Shown: piece by piece, positions 1,846 to 9,184 of the stretch
Numbering within the stretch: the first letter of the stretch is position 1
How the letters are laid out: every line of letters starts with the position of its first letter
Virus record (IMG/VR): IMGVR_UViG_2648501186_000016
From: a virus
Lineage: Duplodnaviria; Heunggongvirae; Uroviricota; Caudoviricetes
Direction: 5' to 3' (one strand)
DNA length: 10,679 nucleotides
Program-made: the position numbers and the translations under genes
Notes under the pieces: model-generated
The model's input: only the letters and a program-made list of their open reading frames with translations
What the model was told of the DNA's origin: nothing
Database searches by the model: none

Positions 1846-2993
1846 TTGCGCCCCCTTACCTCTGAAGGGTTCAGCGACAAATTTATGAGGCAGGCCAGTG
1901 CCGAAGCATCATTAATATAGTCATACAAGCTAACAGCCAGCGGAGATTCGGCTTTTGCCAACATAGGATAAAGCTGCTGCAGCCAGACCTGATGAATTGA
2001 TGAAATGTAGGAACAGAGAACGCTGGCGTTATGTGCAACGTCGCTCGGTACAGCGGGCTTTGAAAGCTGTTTCTCCATCTGGTTAAAGGCATTGATGTAT
2101 GCCTCTTTGAACTGGGCAGCACGTTTACCCGTGAAACCCATAGCAAGAAACGCAAAGCCGTCGCGGGTTATTTGATAGCAAGGTAGTTTGCGGCCTGTGC
2201 AATCGGTGTAATCACTCACCGAAAAATTGCGGGCAGTGAATGATGCGGAACATTCAAGCGTGCGGATCTTTTTCAGTACATCGTCATGACGTTTGGAGAA
2301 GAAGTTGGCAACAGCCAGGGATGAAGTAACAGCCTGACCATCAACGATGGCAATTTCAGGTTGAGTGAGGGTTGGGATCGTAGCCATGATGGCAGCCTCT
2401 TTGGTGATTTTTAATAACTCACCACCAAGGCTTTCCACGACCTTATTGGTGGTGAGACGTACAGGGGTGGAAATACCGGTCACCAAAGAACCCGGCCCAA
2501 CCGAAGTTGGCCCTGCACGCCCCACCATAATTTGGGCGTAATGCTGCTCATGACACAAAAAAACCGCAAGAGCGCGGTTGTGCGCTTTGGTGAATTCCGG
2601 GTTTCCACGCCCGGCACCCGCTTTATAAGGTGCCTGAACAGTGTAACGTCCCGGAATGGCAGAATCAATGTGCTGGTGGTCCTTCACACTCAACAAAATC
2701 ACGCCTGAATTTCCACAAAGGACTAAAGCATTCATGCGGGTAGTCTTTGCGAAGATAGATAACGCGCTGTGTTTCTGGCTCCCAACGAATAACATGAACA
2801 TAAAGTCCTCTTCCGTCACGAAACCAGCGGTTAAGTTCCTGCACAACTCGCCCCCCACAGTCAGGTAAAGTTCTCTGTGGTTACTAACAGCCAGGTGATT
2901 TGGTAATCTGCATTCATGCCGTAACAACAGGTGTGCAGCGACACTGACCACCAGCTGTTGCGACAAACGGTTATTTGCCGTTAAACTGTTCAT
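1842..2993 (-). CDS. Rha-family phage regulatory protein module (aa 203-383) preceded in frame by a 202-aa region of unknown function
   Basis: The C-terminal part MATIPTLTQPEIAIVDGQAVTSSLAVANFFSKRHDDVLKKIRTL...YQITRDGFAFLAMGFTGKRAAQFKEAYINAFNQME is a full Phage_pRha-type domain. It has its own ATG (2387-2385) and SD (AGAGGCTGCCATC-ATG). The upstream ATG at 2993-2991 overlaps the CII-like stop (ATGA) and has GGAG 10 nt upstream. About 606 nt run stop-free, so the N-terminal region is or was coding. An alternative model is a Rha-only CDS at 1842-2387. Confidence 0.6.
   Translation of the reverse strand: MNSLTANNRLSQQLVVSVAAHLLLRHECRLPNHLAVSNHRELYLTVGGELCRNLTAGFVTEEDFMFMLFVGSQKHSALSIFAKTTRMNALVLCGNSGVILLSVKDHQHIDSAIPGRYTVQAPYKAGAGRGNPEFTKAHNRALAVFLCHEQHYAQIMVGRAGPTSVGPGSLVTGISTPVRLTTNKVVESLGGELLKITKEAAIMATIPTLTQPEIAIVDGQAVTSSLAVANFFSKRHDDVLKKIRTLECSASFTARNFSVSDYTDCTGRKLPCYQITRDGFAFLAMGFTGKRAAQFKEAYINAFNQMEKQLSKPAVPSDVAHNASVLCSYISSIHQVWLQQLYPMLAKAESPLAVSLYDYINDASALACLINLSLNPSEVRGRK
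2555..2579 (-). terminator. Intrinsic-terminator-like hairpin inside the 383-aa ORF
   Basis: The minus strand reads AACCGC-GCTCTT-GCGGTT followed by further Ts (7 consecutive T in total, plus-strand A run 2557-2563). It is preceded by two more hairpins on the same strand: CCGGG/CCCGG at 2597-2614 and GGCACC/GGTGCC at 2613-2634. The stem is modest (6 bp), so function is uncertain. Confidence 0.3.
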
Positions 2994-3541
2994 GCGTTAG
3001 TTTCTCCACAGACACAAAACGCCACGACGCCCGGAGCTGCACACTCGCGGGCGTCACTCTTTTCTGGAGCGCAGAAAATTTTGTAGACCAGTGCCGCATG
3101 CTCCTGGAGCTTCGAAATTGACAGATACAATTCATCATTAATTGCTGTCTGCTCGTGTGGCTCCACTACCCCATCTTCGATTGCCGAACGAATCTGCTTT
3201 GAGTAACTCCCGATCTGTTCGATGACTTCCAGCAGGCGCTGGTTTATATCTGCGTTCTCTACTTCCTCAATTTCAGGAAGCGATACAAACACCCCACCAG
3301 CAGACTGTGCGACAGCATCCGCAATGTAGTGAGTGCCAGCAGCACGCTGTAAAATCATTGCCCATCCCAGCGGGAAAATCTGATCGCCATCTGCACGAAG
3401 GCGGTTGAATAAAGCGTTCTCTGTAACATCCAGCCACTCAGCAGCTTCAGCGTAACCCCCCGGCAACGCCGCGATAGTTTTTCTGACAGCTTTCACGTAC
3501 CACTCAGGCTGTTTTTCCACTTTCCAGTGATGATTACCCAC
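2990..3541 (-). CDS. CII-like phage regulatory protein (phage 186 CII / CP76 family-like)
   Basis: 183-aa ORF with a GTG start at 3541-3539, preceded by AGGAGG plus 6 nt, and overlapping the cro-like stop. The pattern ...TENALFNRLRADGDQIFPLGWAMILQRAAGTHYIADAVAQSAGGVFVSLP...INQRLLEVIEQIGSYSKQIRSAIEDGVVEPHEQTAINDEL... matches my recollection of the 186 CII/CP76 architecture. Its position immediately after cro is as expected. Confidence 0.65.
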   Translation of the reverse strand: MGNHHWKVEKQPEWYVKAVRKTIAALPGGYAEAAEWLDVTENALFNRLRADGDQIFPLGWAMILQRAAGTHYIADAVAQSAGGVFVSLPEIEEVENADINQRLLEVIEQIGSYSKQIRSAIEDGVVEPHEQTAINDELYLSISKLQEHAALVYKIFCAPEKSDARECAAPGVVAFCVCGETNA

Positions 3542-3794
3542 GGCTTACCTCCTGTTCCTGTGGTTTAAACCCATTCTGGTTTTGGCTAGATTGAAAACGT
3601 GCCGGATAAAGAATCTGCATTTCGCTGATTTCACCCTTAAAAAAATTGGCCAGACGTTCTGCAAGATCGATAGATGGAATTTGTTCCAGTCTTTCAATAC
3701 GACTCAGCGTCGCTGGATTGACCTGAACGCCAGCAGCAACATGCTGCAAAGTAAATCCGTGCGCCTTACGCACATTCCGTAATGGTGATTGCAT
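3534..3794 (-). CDS. Cro-like XRE-family HTH regulator
   Basis: 86 aa. The HTH is FTLQHVAAGVQVNPATLSRIERLEQIPSIDLAERLANFF. SD GGAGG lies 4-8 nt before ATG 3794-3792. The gene is divergent from the cI-like repressor across a 97-bp operator/promoter region. Confidence 0.8.
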   Translation of the reverse strand: MQSPLRNVRKAHGFTLQHVAAGVQVNPATLSRIERLEQIPSIDLAERLANFFKGEISEMQILYPARFQSSQNQNGFKPQEQEVSRG

Positions 3795-3891: not shown

Positions 3892-4584
3892 ATGAACATA
3901 GGAAACCGAGTCAGACAACTTCGCCAGGCGAAGAACATGAAAATCGCCGATCTCGCTGAAGCAATAGGAGTGGATGCGGCGAATATCTCACGCCTGGAAA
4001 CAGGTAAGCAGAAACAATTCACTGAACAAGCCCTGAGTAATATTGCCAAGAGCTTAGGTGTTGATATTGCTGATCTCTTTACCTCAGACTTCAAAAGTAA
4101 TACTGTATGTAAAAACAGTATTAGTGAGGATGTTGCGCAGGTGAAGGATGTATTCCGTATTGAAATGCTGGATGTCAGTGCCAGTGCGGGAAATGGCCTT
4201 ATCCAGGGCGGTGATGTCATTGATGTGATTCATGCCATTGAATACAGAACTGATAATGCTGTATCGATGTTTGGTGGACGGCCAGCCAATCACATTAAAG
4301 TTATCAACGTTCGTGGGGACAGTATGTGTCCAACCATTGAGCCAGGAGATCTCATCTTCGTTGATGTCAGTATCAATCAGTTTGATGGAGATGGTATCTA
4401 TGTATTTGGTTTTGATGATAAAATTTATGTCAAACGACTGCAAATGATACCTGACAAACTACTGGTGATTTCTGATAACCAGATTTACCGTGAATGGGGA
4501 ATTACCAGCGAAAATGAACACCGGTTTATGGTCTTTGGAAAGGTCTTAATCAGCCAGTCACAAACCCTTAAGCGACACAATTAA
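3892..4584 (+). CDS. cI-like prophage repressor: N-terminal XRE HTH plus C-terminal S24 (LexA-like) autopeptidase
   Basis: HTH: MKIADLAEAIGVDAANISRLETGKQ. Putative Ala-Gly cleavage site in DVSASAGNG. Ser nucleophile in VRGDSMCPTIEPGDLIFV. Lys in IYVKRL. 230 aa, divergent from the cro-like gene. Confidence 0.9.
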   Translation: MNIGNRVRQLRQAKNMKIADLAEAIGVDAANISRLETGKQKQFTEQALSNIAKSLGVDIADLFTSDFKSNTVCKNSISEDVAQVKDVFRIEMLDVSASAGNGLIQGGDVIDVIHAIEYRTDNAVSMFGGRPANHIKVINVRGDSMCPTIEPGDLIFVDVSINQFDGDGIYVFGFDDKIYVKRLQMIPDKLLVISDNQIYREWGITSENEHRFMVFGKVLISQSQTLKRHN

Positions 4585-4604
4585 CCCTTACCTCCTCATC
4601 AATT

Positions 4605-4629
4605 AGCCACCCAAAGGTGGCTTTTCATT
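4605..4629 (+). terminator. Rho-independent terminator after the repressor gene
   Basis: AGCCACC-CAAA-GGTGGCT (7-bp stem, 4605-4622) followed by TTTTCATT, 21 nt after the TAA at 4582-4584. Confidence 0.7.
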
Positions 4630-4639
4630 ACCCTTTAAA

Positions 4640-4692
4640 TTGCATATCTCGCAACAAAAACACTTGCATAATGCGCAACTTCATTTTATCTT
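4640..4692 (+). promoter_or_regulatory. OL-like operator pair with a candidate PL-like promoter
   Basis: Two perfect TTGC-N7-GCAA sites: TTGCATATCTCGCAA (4640-4654) and TTGCATAATGCGCAA (4664-4678), 24 bp apart centre to centre. Candidate promoter TTGCAT (4664-4669), 17-nt spacer, TATCTT (4687-4692). The exact promoter assignment is uncertain. Confidence 0.45.
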
Positions 4693-5086
4693 TCTTTCCA
4701 GACAAACAAACAAGGTACTAACAAAATTTGGTTGTAACACGGCGTATGGCACATGCGTCGTTAGCGGTCTGGGGACGTTAAAGGGGACAATCCACTCCTT
4801 GCTCGGGCAAACAAACCAGGTAGCCGGAATGTGCAAGTCAATGATGATGCTGATAAGACGCCTAACCAGCGTGGCGATTCGGTTTGACGCCTGGGAAGAG
4901 ACCAGGGTGCAACGATGAGGGCATTTATGGAGCCGCGACAAAGTGTGGTGCCGTAACTGGCTAAGTGCTCTCAGCGTTGTGGTAATCCGCGAAATGGCGC
5001 GGCGGTAAGTATGGCGGGGTTACTCTTTCCCCGTTGAGGACACCGGATTGTCAGGTTGACCATACGCCTGAGTGACAACCCCACCA

Positions 5087-5150
5087 CAACAGCCACTGCT
5101 TTGGCGGTACCAGTTTGTACCCTTGCTTCCGGCTGGTACCGCTCTTTTTA
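5087..5150 (+). ncRNA. dicF: DicF-like sRNA including its terminator hairpin
   Basis: TTTGGCGGTACCAGTTTGTACCC...CTGGTACCGCTCTTTTT resembles my recollection of E. coli Qin DicF (TTTCTGGTGACGTTTGGCGGTATCAGTTTTACTCCGTGACTGCTCTGCCGCCCTTTTT). There is a perfect 10-bp stem GCGGTACCAG (5104-5113) / CTGGTACCGC (5133-5142) followed by TCTTTTTA. The context matches dicF: the repressor-controlled leftward operon of a lambdoid prophage. The 5' end is not determinable from sequence. Confidence 0.55.
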
Positions 5151-5286
5151 CAAAACAGAGAAGAGCATCACCGGACGACGGGCTCATAACCCAATCCATC
5201 CGGGCGGCTGCCACCGCAGGTGTTCTTCTCCGTTTTGTGGAGAAACCAACCGACCTTGCAGGGTCGATATGATGAGGAGCAGCAAA

Positions 5287-5649
5287 ATGGCTAGCGAACG
5301 CAGTACTGATGTGCAGGCATTTATTGGGGAGCTGGACGGCGGCGTATTTGAAACCAAAATCGGCGCAGTTCTCAGTGAAGTCGCTTCCGGTGTGATGAAC
5401 ACGAAAACCAAAGGTAAGGTCTCGCTCAACCTGGAAATCGAACCGTTTGATGAGAATCGTGTGAAAATCAAACACAAACTCTCGTATGTTCGCCCGACTA
5501 ACCGCGGGAAAATTTCCGAAGAAGACACCACCGAAACGCCGATGTATGTCAATCGCGGTGGTCGCCTGACTATTCTGCAGGAAGACCAGGGACAATTACT
5601 GACTCTTGCTGGTGAACCTGACGGAAAACTCCGCGCAGCAGGTCATTAA
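5287..5649 (+). CDS. yfdP: YfdP-like prophage protein (120 aa)
   Basis: MASERSTDVQAFIGELDGGVFETKIGAVLSEVASGVMNTKTKGK... with SD GAGGAG 7 nt upstream of ATG 5287. The track ORF (from TTG 5056) extends upstream through non-protein-like sequence that contains the terminator. In-frame ATG 5269 is an alternative start. Synteny with the yfdQ- and yfdR-like genes supports the call. Confidence 0.75.
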   Translation: MASERSTDVQAFIGELDGGVFETKIGAVLSEVASGVMNTKTKGKVSLNLEIEPFDENRVKIKHKLSYVRPTNRGKISEEDTTETPMYVNRGGRLTILQEDQGQLLTLAGEPDGKLRAAGH

Positions 5650-5714: not shown

Positions 5715-6539
5715 ATGTCTCAGAACTTAGACGCAACCGCAATTAATCAAATCCATGCCCTTATTTCTGCTCAGGGTGTTAATGAAATTATCAGTAAGAT
5801 TGGTGCCGATGCTGTGGCATTGCCTGAGAATTTCCGCATTCATGATCTGGAAAAATTTAATTTAAATCGCTTCCGTTTCCGTGGTGCGCTTTCCACTGCC
5901 AGCATCGATGACTTTACCCGTTATTCTAAAGATCTTGCAGATGAAGGCACCCGCTGCTTTATCGATGCTGATAATATGCGTGCCGTCAGTGTGCTTAACC
6001 TGGGTACTATTGATGAACCAGGTCACGCAGATAACACCGCCACTCTCAAACTGAAAAAGACAGCACCGTTCTCTGCTCTGTTGTCTGTTAATGGCGAGCG
6101 TAACTCCCAGAAATCACTGGCAGAATGGATTGAAGACTGGGCCGACTACCTTGTGGGCTTTGATGCTAATGGTGACACCATTCAGGCAACAAAAGCGGCT
6201 GCGGCGGTCCGTAAAATCACGATTGAAGCAAACCAGACCGCTGATTTTGAAGATAATGACTTCAGCGGCAAACGCTCCCTGATGGAGTCTGTCGAAGCGA
6301 AGACTAAAGACATTATGCCAGTGGCATTTGAATTTAAATGCGTTCCGTTTGAAGGCCTTAAAGAACGTCCGTTTAAATTACGCCTCAGCATTATCACTGG
6401 CGATCGTCCTGTACTGGTTCTGCGCATTATTCAGCTGGAAGCGGTGCAGGAAGAAATGGCTAACGAATTTCGTGATCTGCTTGTTGAGAAATTTAAAGAC
6501 AGCAAAGTAGAAACCTTTATTGGTACTTTCACCGCCTGA
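5715..6539 (+). CDS. yfdQ: YfdQ-like protein (DUF2303 family), 274 aa
   Basis: Clean 274-aa ORF, SD GTGAGGA before the ATG. The sequence and its position between the yfdP- and yfdR-like genes match my recollection of the CPS-53/KplE1 yfdPQR cluster. Confidence 0.8.
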
Positions 6540-6573: not shown

Positions 6574-6666
6574 ATGGAAACATAATTTACTCAATAATCG
6601 CCGGATGGTGATGGCTTCCTTTTACCAGAATTCAGCGCGGTGCAGCGCATATACGTGGAGAACGAA

Positions 6667-7203
6667 ATGTCATTTATTAAAACTTTTTCCGGGAAGCATT
6701 TTTATTATGACAAGATAAATAAAAATGACATCGTTATTAACGATATCGCGGTTTCCCTTTCAAATATCTGTCGCTTTGCTGGTCATCTTTCACACTTCTA
6801 CAGCGTTGCCCAACATGCGGTGCTTTGCAGCCAGCTGGTACCACAGGAATTTGCTTTTGAAGCGTTAATGCATGATGCAACAGAAGCGTATTGTCAAGAC
6901 ATCCCCGCGCCACTGAAACACATTCTTCCTGACTATAAACGGATGGAAGAAAAAATAGACGCCGTAATCCGTGAGAAATACGGGTTACCCCCGGTTATGA
7001 GCACGCCTGTGAAATATCCCGATCTCATCATGCTCGCAACCGAACGCCGTGATCTCGGGCTTGATGATGGCTCTTTCTGGCCTGTACTGGAAGGTATCCC
7101 GGCAACAGAGATGTTCAAAGTTATTCCACAGTCGCCAGGCCATGCCTACGGGATGTTTATGGAACGCTTTAACGAGTTATCGGAGTTACGCAAATGCGCA
7201 TGA
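6667..7203 (+). CDS. yfdR: YfdR-like HD-domain phosphohydrolase (5'-deoxynucleotidase family), 178 aa
   Basis: MSFIKTFSGKHFYYDKINK...SVAQHAVLCS...ALMHDATEAYCQDIP carries the H...HD metal-binding motif and is near-identical to my recollection of E. coli K-12 YfdR. I prefer ATG 6667 (GGAG 6 nt upstream) over the track's GTG 6640. Confidence 0.85.
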   Translation: MSFIKTFSGKHFYYDKINKNDIVINDIAVSLSNICRFAGHLSHFYSVAQHAVLCSQLVPQEFAFEALMHDATEAYCQDIPAPLKHILPDYKRMEEKIDAVIREKYGLPPVMSTPVKYPDLIMLATERRDLGLDDGSFWPVLEGIPATEMFKVIPQSPGHAYGMFMERFNELSELRKCA

Positions 7204-8164: not shown

Positions 8165-9184
8165 ATGACTTCTGAAAGCAACAGAATTGGGAAGATGGGT
8201 GTAAACTACATAGAAGGTGTATTGACAAGATGGGGATGGGGATATCAATCAATTTCGCAAGAAAATGATGATGGGTTTGATGGCTTAATATATATAAGAT
8301 CTAAACGATTTGAGGCGAAAGATAAAGAAAACCGGAGTAAACAATCTTGGGAGTTCACTGGTGGGTTGATTCATGTACAAGTAAAAAGTGGAGATACATA
8401 CATTAGTAGTCGTAATAAAGATGAAATAAGGATCAAAATAAAAAACCTCAATGAAAAGAAGAAAATATGGTCTAGATCGTCTATTCCATGCATACTTGTA
8501 TTTGTTTTTTGGGATCATAATGAAGTTGAGTATTCCTACTGGGCTGATCTTAAATCTGAATTAACTTATTGTGATAACAGTAGTACGCTAATAAAAATCC
8601 CCTTAAAAAATAGATTTATGAGATCCCAAGAGTGTAAGGGGCCTTTAAGACGACTTGCAAGGGTATCGGCCAACTATGCAGATAAGCCGCTGATAGATTT
8701 ATCAAAATTTGACTCATTAAGTGGTAAGCTACCTACAAGTCTAAACAGTAACCTAAATTGTTCTTTGAAAAAGAAAGGTATTGAATTCTATCAGAAATGG
8801 CGATTAATTGGGGCTACAAACCCTTATTTTGGTCCTGTTCTAATAAACAGAACTGGTTGGAGTCATATAACTCGACGAAATCGCCCAATAGCAAGAATTG
8901 AAGCAAGCTTTAATTTGTTACCTTTAGCAGCAAGAATTATAAATGATGTATCTACATGGCGAATGTTAACACCCGTACGACGGTATGATAATAGAAAGGA
9001 TGGTTATGTTTGCTTTATAGATTTCGTTGGGTTAACAGCCAAAGTGAATTTAAAGAATCGCAACTCATCAGAAGTTATGGTTGTGTTAAAAAGGGAGAGG
9101 AGGTATAAACAGGGTGAAGACTGTTCCTCTGCGAAAACAAGATTATGGTTTTACACTGTTTATGAACCTGGAAGAGGAAAATAA
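8165..9184 (+). CDS. Cargo protein: N-terminal DUF4365-like PD-(D/E)xK nuclease-fold domain plus an unrecognised ~200-aa C-terminal domain
   Basis: 339-aa ORF with SD GAGGG 6 nt upstream. N-terminal motifs are GVNYIEGVL (E), NDDGFDGLIYI (D) and GLIHVQVKSG (QxK), followed by SIPCILVFVFWD...YSYWADL. This matches the DUF4365 pattern as I recall it. The gene is visibly much more AT-rich than its neighbours and sits between the xis-like gene and int. Confidence 0.75.
   Translation: MTSESNRIGKMGVNYIEGVLTRWGWGYQSISQENDDGFDGLIYIRSKRFEAKDKENRSKQSWEFTGGLIHVQVKSGDTYISSRNKDEIRIKIKNLNEKKKIWSRSSIPCILVFVFWDHNEVEYSYWADLKSELTYCDNSSTLIKIPLKNRFMRSQECKGPLRRLARVSANYADKPLIDLSKFDSLSGKLPTSLNSNLNCSLKKKGIEFYQKWRLIGATNPYFGPVLINRTGWSHITRRNRPIARIEASFNLLPLAARIINDVSTWRMLTPVRRYDNRKDGYVCFIDFVGLTAKVNLKNRNSSEVMVVLKRERRYKQGEDCSSAKTRLWFYTVYEPGRGK

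Follow-up and report, generated by a model that had tools for sequence, protein, structure and literature searches.

The C4 RNAs of phages P1 and P7 and the CI RNA of P4 are immunity RNAs that are cut from leader transcripts by ribonuclease P (RNase P), and the 'species 1 and 2' RNAs of the virulent phage T4 are stable molecules of unknown function that are co-transcribed with transfer RNAs (tRNAs). The small RNA DicF of prophage Qin exists as two species, a 190-nucleotide (nt) form with a 5′ end made by ribonuclease III (RNase III) and a 53-nt form made by ribonuclease E (RNase E) (Ragunathan 2023, PMC10448788, confirming Faubladier 1990); pairing of its 5′ seed UUUCUGGUGACG with ftsZ and other targets is a criterion of the DicF family. 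The put RNA of phage HK022 is ~70 nt long, folds into two stem-loops and is present at PL as well as at PR, both of them early promoters (PMC9378689). Here we describe an RNA leader that is compared below with each of these systems. It occupies positions 4693-5086 of a 10,679-nt stretch of DNA (IMG/VR record IMGVR_UViG_2648501186_000016; the whole stretch is called the window below), which derives from a lambdoid prophage of Escherichia coli. One third of this region is explained by the leader of the DicF precursor, and the other two thirds are a real, widespread and previously undescribed structured RNA that we call element A.

The leader is best read as the untranslated 5′ part of the predicted early-left (PL) transcript. 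When its 394 nt were used as a BLAST query against 5,426 complete E. coli genomes, query positions 284-394 (window 4976-5086) gave a ~93% match at a locus present in most E. coli strains, including K-12, and query positions 47-290 (window ~4739-4982) gave a ~84% match to a stretch adjoining tRNA-Arg. At least 80% of the leader was present in 813 of the 5,426 genomes, and a search of a phage collection returned the same mosaic pattern. Because separate parts of 4693-5086 match separate loci, the region is a mosaic of two non-coding modules, each mobile independently of the other, with a terminator behind them. Module boundaries lie at ~4711-4724 and ~4976-4984 in an identity profile of 98 IMG/VR copies. 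The 3′ module, module B, follows element A in only 40 of 274 element A copies and is preceded by it in only 21 of 94 module B contexts, and element A is identical in copies that bear a different downstream cassette. Long-range complementarities between the two modules can be seen (4730-4749/5060-5080, 4786-4793/5045-5052 and 4822-4829/5127-5134); these pairings were treated as not conserved, element A being unchanged beside other cassettes and other DicF-type loops lacking the complement.

The fold of element A was modelled on an anchored MAFFT alignment of 40 diverse copies from which the tip insert of helix H6 had been excised (alignment A4), with the pair model read from the sequences. The predicted parts are as follows.

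4711-4737, + strand: 5′ flank of element A (…AAAUUUGGUUGUAAC), conserved; also present in P7 and D6, there immediately behind the 3′ end of a tRNA
~4738-4981, + strand: element A, a conserved structured RNA of ~240 nt, with homologues in three phage groups and covariation
4739-4748 / 4752-4761, + strand: helix H1
4765-4771 / 4817-4819 plus 4823-4826, + strand: helix H2
4781-4786 / 4795-4800, + strand: H3, a variable hairpin with a UCCUUG motif
4820-4839, + strand: near-invariant single-stranded core of ~19 nt (GGUAGCCGGAAUGUGCAAG)
4840-4857, + strand: Hv, a variable hairpin
4858-4861/4869-4872 (S1) and 4864-4867/4881-4884 (S2), + strand: H-type pseudoknot
4890-4894 / 4902-4906, + strand: helix H5, loop GAAGAGA
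4908-4914/4975-4981 plus 4916-4923/4966-4973, + strand: helix H6, with a variable tip insert at 4924-4965

Standard pairs filled 85.7% of the cells of this model in A4, compared with 31-47% when the 3′ partners were slid along the alignment. Pairs changed on both sides numbered 22 (5-12 when slid) and the covariation score was 0.219 (at most 0.082 when slid), and for each covariation measure none of 500 shuffles reached the observed value. Compensatory exchanges were found throughout the fold: one pair of H1 is A-U in 22 copies and G-C in 17, one pair of H2 is C-G in 30 copies and U-A in 10, and H5 shows both U-A/C-G and C-G/G-C exchanges. In the pseudoknot, S1 uses three to four pair types per position, with 26 distinct variants that each retain at least 3 of the 4 pairs, and S2 takes one of two forms, CACC/GGUG (102 distinct copies) or AACC/GGUU (12), which no copy mixes. 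H6 occurs in fully compensated versions that include GAUGAGAGCA/UGCUCUCAGC, GGUAAGAGCA/UGCUCUUUCC, UGAAAGAGCGC/GCGCUCUUUUUCA and GGAAAAGGCG/CGCCGUUUCC, and its native strands fold at -18.1 kcal/mol versus -13.7 with swapped partners (p = 1e-11). The frequent G·U pairs identify the + strand as the RNA strand. The tips of H3, Hv and H6 are free to vary in sequence and length, H6 accepting inserts of up to ~200 nt, and the core GGUAGCCGGAAUGUGCAAG is unchanged in 215 of the 241 copies that were gathered via a different anchor. An independent RNAalifold run recovered S1, H5, part of H2 (in another register) and the outer part of H6, which it extended by two pairs. Taken together, comparison of the homologues shows that temperate phages of many Enterobacteriaceae have conserved both the core and the predicted fold of six helices and an H-type pseudoknot.

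The H3 loop (4781-4800) contains a pyrimidine motif, UCCUUG or UCCCUUG, that many DicF-type terminator hairpins of related loci also have in their loops. The UCCUUG of the window copy pairs with AAGGGG, and the motif may be an anti-Shine-Dalgarno-like seed. The core and the UCCUUG loop may resemble CsrA sites or anti-Shine-Dalgarno sequences.

A preliminary description of the window had depicted this region as G+C-rich, hairpin-dense and not explained by known features, and much of that picture stands. G+C content is 50-57% across 4700-5100 compared with 39-46% in the flanking repressor region, and the stems CCTGG/CCAGG (4890-4894/4902-4906), CCGCG/CGCGG (4987-4991/4998-5002) and CGGGG/CCCCG (5015-5019/5029-5033) are located where they had been reported, as are all of the listed repeats, including GGGGAC at 4771 and 4783. 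The individual short direct repeats did not prove to be conserved features. A 9-base pair (bp) long-range complement, GGCGTATGG at 4741-4749 with CCATACGCC at 5060-5068, is present as described, but the pair is not conserved, since CCATACGCC pairs within module B and GGCGTATGG is the 5′ strand of H1. Folding energy of the whole leader is marginal (z = -1.75, with 5 of 100 shuffles folding as well), so that it is the covariation between homologues, the check that had been proposed, and not energy, that places the stems beyond chance. The statement that known features do not account for the region holds for the 5′ 240 nt, and fails for the 3′ 110 nt (4976-5086), which correspond to the known leader of the 190-nt DicF precursor.

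Homologues of element A were found in three phage groups. Lambdoid phages of several immunity types carry it in the PL leader (cdtI, mEp460, 2H10, Ayreon and Stx2c phages). In epsilon15-like phages (genus Uetakevirus; phiV10, SPN1S, Tyrion and Klebsiella phage BUCT711) it heads a reverse-strand unit between the portal-side and the terminase genes, and in P1, P7 and D6 its place is between ban and a tRNA(CAU) that immediately precedes it. A scan of species representatives located it in Kosakonia, Citrobacter, Klebsiella, Kluyvera, Phytobacter, Enterobacter, Buttiauxella, Pseudescherichia and 'Ca. Erwinia dacicola'; Salmonella also carries relatives. tRNA genes are frequent neighbours, with tRNA-Arg(UCU) within a few bases 3′ of element A in 48 of 274 copies and tRNA(CAU) directly 5′ of it in 28 of 274. 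In 168 of 241 distinct contexts (70%) a DicF-type terminator (UUGGCGG…CCGC(C)-UUUU) lies downstream in the same orientation, compared with 0 in the reverse-strand control. Module B, tRNA-Arg or other cassettes sometimes separate element A from this terminator, and the stems of the DicF-type hairpins differ by compensatory changes. Some of these cassettes, and some H6 tip inserts, carry T-arm- or D-arm-like motifs (GGTTCAATTCC, GTCCGTTCGATTCGGAC, GCTGGTTCGACTCCAGC; loci L131 of SPN1S at ~1640-1720, L093 and the cassette of L142), which ARAGORN did not call as tRNAs and which may be tRNA-derived fragments or tRNA-like modules.

The unit of phiV10 displays the arrangement in compact form: a promoter-like TTGAAC-16-TATTTT that ends 7 nt before H1, element A, tRNA-Arg, a small hairpin and the DicF-type terminator, with no open reading frame (ORF) in the unit. 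A second intrinsic terminator (phiV10 locus L005, 2982-2997) lies ~10 nt before the ribosome-binding site of the same-strand gene p03, and because it precedes that site p03 is expressible only by read-through. In P7 a near match to the DicF seed, UUUUCUGGUGAUGAC, follows the shortened element A in the 5′ untranslated region of ban (P7 locus L004, ~2700-2720). In P7 and P1, operator Op(ban) is immediately followed by a module B copy and a DicF-type terminator hairpin, which together open the ban operon (L004 ~150-300).

The 3′ part of the leader comprises the following features.

4976-4983 / 5083-5090, + strand: clamp helix of 8 bp (GUUGUGGU / ACCACAAC), supported by folds and compensatory changes, enclosing module B
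4984-5082, + strand: module B, with hairpins 4987-4991/4998-5002 and 5015-5019/5029-5033
5091-5149, + strand: DicF-related terminal hairpin and intrinsic terminator, with single-stranded AGCCACUGCUUU, stem 5103-5115/5131-5143 and UCUUUUU

This part is 93% identical over 107 nt to the spacer between ydfC and dicF in Qin of K-12, the match lying at 3001-3107 of the Qin locus (L003) and Rfam DicF at 3133-3184. Counting 190 nt back from the dicF terminator leads to L003 ~3000, equivalent to window ~4975, where homology to the window begins, and at the 5′ foot of the clamp helix lies the site that was mapped for RNase III in Qin. Minimum-energy folding gives the clamp in the window copy and in the K-12 copy, the strands of the latter being GUUGUGGC/GCUGCAAC. 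At clamp position 8 the window has U-A and Qin has C-G; among 94 distinct copies this position is U-A or C-G with some U·G, and positions 5 and 6 are Watson-Crick or wobble pairs. The P7 copy of module B, which starts right after the promoter, lacks both clamp strands. A naive search for an acceptor-like stem closing every cassette was too noisy, and only the GUUGUGGN/NCCACAAC clamp was retained. A DicF-type terminator ends 79 of the 94 module B contexts. In the window the terminator is real and strong, as the preliminary description had judged, with a perfect 10-bp stem (5104-5113/5133-5142) followed by TCTTTTT, and a hairpin of -22 kcal/mol (z = -3.2).

These observations show that 4976-5149 is a homologue of the long 190-nt DicF precursor of Qin that has lost the seed. 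Like that precursor, whose 5′ end RNase III has been shown to make at the foot of the clamp in K-12 Qin, it has the clamp helix, lies downstream of a repressor-controlled early promoter and starts its terminator hairpin with UUUGGCGGUA-CAGUUU. Unlike it, the window copy lacks 19 nt of the seed region and has a different hairpin top: in alignment A3 a 19-nt gap stands where K-12 has AUCAAUUUUCUGGUGACG, which removes the DicF 5′ seed. The window hairpin begins UUUGGCGG and, as the DicF criterion has it, closes an untranslated stretch within an early operon under repressor control. The Rfam DicF model (RF00039, threshold 48 bits) scores K-12 at 76.7 bits and has no match in the window or phiV10, even at E ≤ 10. 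By homology, then, the 3′ part belongs to the family of DicF-precursor leaders, but its terminal hairpin is not DicF by either the Rfam model or the seed; as a seed-less relative of the long precursor, this part is explained by known biology. Qin carries ydfABC upstream, in the place where the window prophage carries element A; nothing like these genes is present here, in agreement with the preliminary description, and the reported location of the leader between a PL-like promoter and a DicF-like terminator was likewise confirmed.

The association with DicF-type terminators and the layout of phiV10 make element A the conserved head of a set of non-coding 'RNA operons' that end in DicF-type RNAs. 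Its ends meet processing sites in each group, namely the tRNA 3′ end in P1, P7 and D6, tRNA-Arg(UCU) in the epsilon15-like phages and the RNase III position in the window, showing that the boundaries of element A coincide with known or expected sites of RNA processing. Three hypotheses had been put forward for the leader, a put-like antiterminator RNA of the HK022 kind, a large small-RNA precursor or scaffold, and a decayed gene, and the second is the best fit. After derepression, a transcript of ~450 nt from ~4699 would stop at 5149 or continue into the yfdPQR genes. RNase III would cut at the foot of the clamp and H6 helices and RNase E would trim the product, releasing a DicF-related hairpin RNA, probably Hfq-binding, and freeing element A as a separate stable RNA of ~240 nt with its ends capped by H1 and H6. 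The freed RNA would most likely act in trans, binding a conserved host component via the invariant core. We infer this function from anatomy, and consider the chances about even that the locus is such a processed RNA operon from which element A is freed to act in trans on a conserved host component. Rather more doubtful is the bolder proposal that element A represents a functional phage RNA of a new class, acting directly on a core host machine; this could take the form of a second, unrelated RNA-only processive antiterminator, or of a catalytic or decoy RNA in an 'RNA operon' for host takeover or anti-defence.

Several observations weigh against a freed, trans-acting RNA. P1 and P7 retain only the 5′ domain of element A, fused to the ban 5′ untranslated region, which gives it the look of a leader element more than that of an independent RNA. 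All contexts seen have protein genes beyond the DicF-type terminator, in the same orientation, so that a cis role exerted on read-through is equally compatible with the anatomy. The fold itself has competitors. RNAalifold replaced H1 with a long-range pairing of GCACAU 4749-4754 with AUGUGC 4829-4834. Both of these strands are near-invariant, and their rare variants (AUGCGC in 4 copies, GGUACAUG, GGAACAUG) are uncompensated; H1 was kept because it contains double changes and the alternative contains none. The outer part of H6 and the clamp helix also compete for GUUG 4976-4979, and owing to these competing pairings the predicted mature fold of element A is tentative. Finally, the sequences behind the covariation counts are related to one another, and the number of independent events may be small.

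Among described RNA families, Rfam 15 gave no relevant match at E ≤ 10 in window 4550-5300, SPN1S or phiV10, with the same outcome at gathering thresholds. ARAGORN found no tRNA or transfer-messenger RNA in the window, and no description of element A was found in the literature on the core sequence, DicF-like RNAs, the ban operon or antiterminator RNAs. Element A resembles HK022 putL and putR in being non-coding, structured, promoter-proximal and upstream of terminators in the early operon of an N-less lambdoid phage, and differs in that it also adjoins tRNAs in P1-like and epsilon15-like phages. As a claim of family membership, the likeness to put that had been suggested for this leader fails on size, architecture, copy number and sequence. 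Element A has ~240 nt, six helices and a pseudoknot. The window contains one copy (profile match 4736-4985, E = 2e-45; next-best E = 1.3), at the PL side, with none on the PR side. In a comparison that covered HK022 itself, nhmmer was run with the element A and module B profiles on its 20-32 kilobase (kb) immunity region, and the best match had E = 0.26 over 16 nt. A lambda-type nut site appears unlikely as well. The PL operon has no N-like first gene and, compared with the boxB pentaloop, H5 is a 5-bp stem with a 7-nt loop, GAAGAGA, and no preceding boxA, and a UGCUCUU-like run is part of the covarying 3′ strand of H6. The GAAGAGA loop presumably begins like that of lambda nutL. The C4 and CI RNAs offer a parallel as regulatory RNAs of phages that tRNA-like processing cuts out of a longer early transcript; C4 differs in that it is 77 nt long and antisense to its own operon, whereas element A has no evident target, and Rfam at E ≤ 10 gave no C4 match in 4550-5300. 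The T4 species 1 and 2 RNAs would be comparable as structured non-tRNA RNAs in a phage tRNA unit that are released by host enzymes. By analogy, the likeness of element A to the C4, CI and T4 RNAs would be limited to excision from a longer phage transcript.

The anatomy also has to be read against functions that do not call for a free RNA. Element A might be a cis-acting processive antiterminator or anti-pausing RNA, put-like in function and unrelated to put, in which the nascent RNA would bind its own RNA polymerase and take it past the DicF-type terminator and Rho to yfdPQR. Such a role would suit an element that is promoter-proximal (~+40 from PL here, ~+1 in phiV10) and that is followed in most contexts by an intrinsic terminator and then same-strand genes, and the strict conservation of the single-stranded core suggests that it binds some conserved host machine. 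Moreover, there is no N-like ORF between the promoter and yfdP (no ORF in 4693-5286 matches a family), as had been noticed at the outset, and a consensus scan found no promoter-like site between 5150 and 5286. Expression of yfdPQR is therefore only via read-through of the 5103-5149 terminator, which upholds the earlier view that transcription has to pass a terminator at 5104-5150 to reach these genes. We nevertheless regard this explanation as unlikely. Element A is not a put family member and stands singly, without a PR-side partner; in P1 and P7 the module B copy and its DicF-type terminator lie 2.3 kb upstream of element A, not downstream; the dicF terminator of Qin is read through without element A (PMC10448788); constitutive antitermination would make a strongly conserved terminator hairpin pointless as a maker of 3′ ends; and element A tolerates H6 insertions of up to ~200 nt. 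Alternatively, the structure could merely shield an untranslated leader of ~590 nt (from the inferred start to the yfdP ATG) from Rho loading and RNases, with no specific partner. The leader is indeed long, ORF-free, G+C-rich and densely paired ahead of protein genes, but shielding needs neither a 19-nt near-invariant unpaired core nor a covarying pseudoknot, and it leaves unexplained the conservation across three unrelated phage groups and in tRNA-adjacent units without ORFs; we consider it very unlikely.

A multi-helix junction with a pseudoknot, an invariant core and freely varying peripheral helices would also befit a riboswitch-like attenuator of read-through or processing, or a ribozyme that cleaves itself at the 3′ boundary of element A. 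Two mutually exclusive helix pairs (H1 or the long-range pairing, and outer H6 or the clamp) and the coincidence of the boundary with processing sites can be cited in the same sense. Since Rfam 15 holds no riboswitch or ribozyme match, no conserved terminator/anti-terminator alternative lies directly at the 3′ end, the downstream module varies and the boundaries are already accounted for by RNase III and RNase P, the positive support is limited to the complexity of the fold, and a sensor or ribozyme appears quite improbable. That the region is a decayed or frameshifted gene, or that its stems and repeats arose by chance in G+C-rich DNA, is extremely improbable. A 92-amino acid TTG ORF (4640-4918, + strand) and an 86-amino acid ORF (4681-4941, - strand) from the ORF list overlap the region, some phage records annotate a 'hypothetical protein' there, and the energy z-score is only -1.75. 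Against this, neither ORF has a Pfam match and PHROGs match only at E ≥ 0.016, any given reading frame is open in at most 42 of 144 distinct homologous copies, insertions, deletions and variable segments of the homologues are not multiples of three in length, and the substitutions in helices are compensatory as judged by the 0 of 500 shuffles. The decayed gene raised in the preliminary description was accordingly rejected, and its statement that 4693-5086 is non-coding and structured is borne out by the lack of a credible gene and by the covariation across homologues.

The prophage setting of the leader is that of a lambdoid early-left operon. Positions 4590-5290, the interval over which the window was compared with the copy in O55:H7 strain CB9615 (locus L001), are 100% identical in CB9615 and in many other strains. 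The surrounding features are listed here.

2445-2532, - strand: C4-type RNA (Rfam match)
2990-3541, - strand: CII-like gene, divergent from the cI-like repressor gene
3534-3794, - strand: Cro-like helix-turn-helix gene (Pfam), divergent from the cI-like repressor gene
3892-4584, + strand: cI-like repressor gene (Pfam helix-turn-helix and Peptidase_S24)
4605-4622, + strand: intrinsic terminator ending the cI-like repressor gene, a 7-bp stem followed by TTTTCATT
4640-4655 and 4664-4679, + strand: two operator-like repeats, TTGCATATCTCGCAAC and TTGCATAATGCGCAAC, read from the sequence
4664-4669 and 4687-4692, + strand: putative PL-like promoter read from the sequence, -35 TTGCAT, 17-nt spacer and -10 TATCTT
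5287-5649, + strand: yfdP, first protein gene of the operon, from the RefSeq annotation of the CB9615 copy, without a Pfam match
5715-6539, + strand: yfdQ/DUF2303, from the same RefSeq annotation, with Pfam and PHROGs matches
6640-7203, + strand: yfdR-like gene, from the same RefSeq annotation, with Pfam and PHROGs matches

A simple consensus promoter scan did not list the PL-like site, whose -35 hexamer has 3 of 6 matches, and because of this we only infer the promoter and a transcription start near 4699. Homology to other immunity types ends to the left of ~4711-4724; a break at this point is expected because promoter and operator are immunity-specific. A 66-amino acid GTG ORF (5072-5272, + strand) overlaps the terminator hairpin and the spacer before yfdP and matches PHROG 33599 (function unannotated) at E = 5e-15, a family that was probably built from over-called ORFs on a conserved non-coding stretch. 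At the far end of the early-left operon, a 339-amino acid ORF (8165-9184, + strand) with DUF4365 has a PADLOC match to an Aga REase-type candidate defence protein (E = 9e-9), and in CB9615 the RefSeq annotation contains the defence gene Dsr1 at L001 9984-12701. On the opposite side of the repressor gene, Rfam matches to C4 antisense RNA (83.6 bits) and isrK (67 bits) lie at 2445-2633 on the - strand, within a 383-amino acid ORF (1842-2993, - strand). The Pfam Phage_ASH match of this ORF (amino acids 117-213, ~2355-2645) exactly covers C4 and isrK and is followed by a Phage_pRha domain; the arrangement looks like an immI-type, RNA-controlled antirepressor unit, and the Phage_ASH ('Ash') domain may be a translation of RNA genes.

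DicF has so far been treated as a relic of defective prophages, and a 2016 study reported no DicF in ~2,000 phage genomes (PMC5069750). The present comparison places DicF-type terminal hairpins with varied seeds in functional temperate phages (cdtI, mEp460, Stx2c, P1/P7/D6, phiV10 and SPN1S), where their partner is a large structured RNA, conserved and outside Rfam. An annotation model also becomes available for a region at present either blank or labelled 'hypothetical protein'. Because the 19-nt core is near-invariant in phages that are otherwise mosaic, a conserved host target is indicated, and this target, once named, would add a new RNA player to the early interaction between phage and host.

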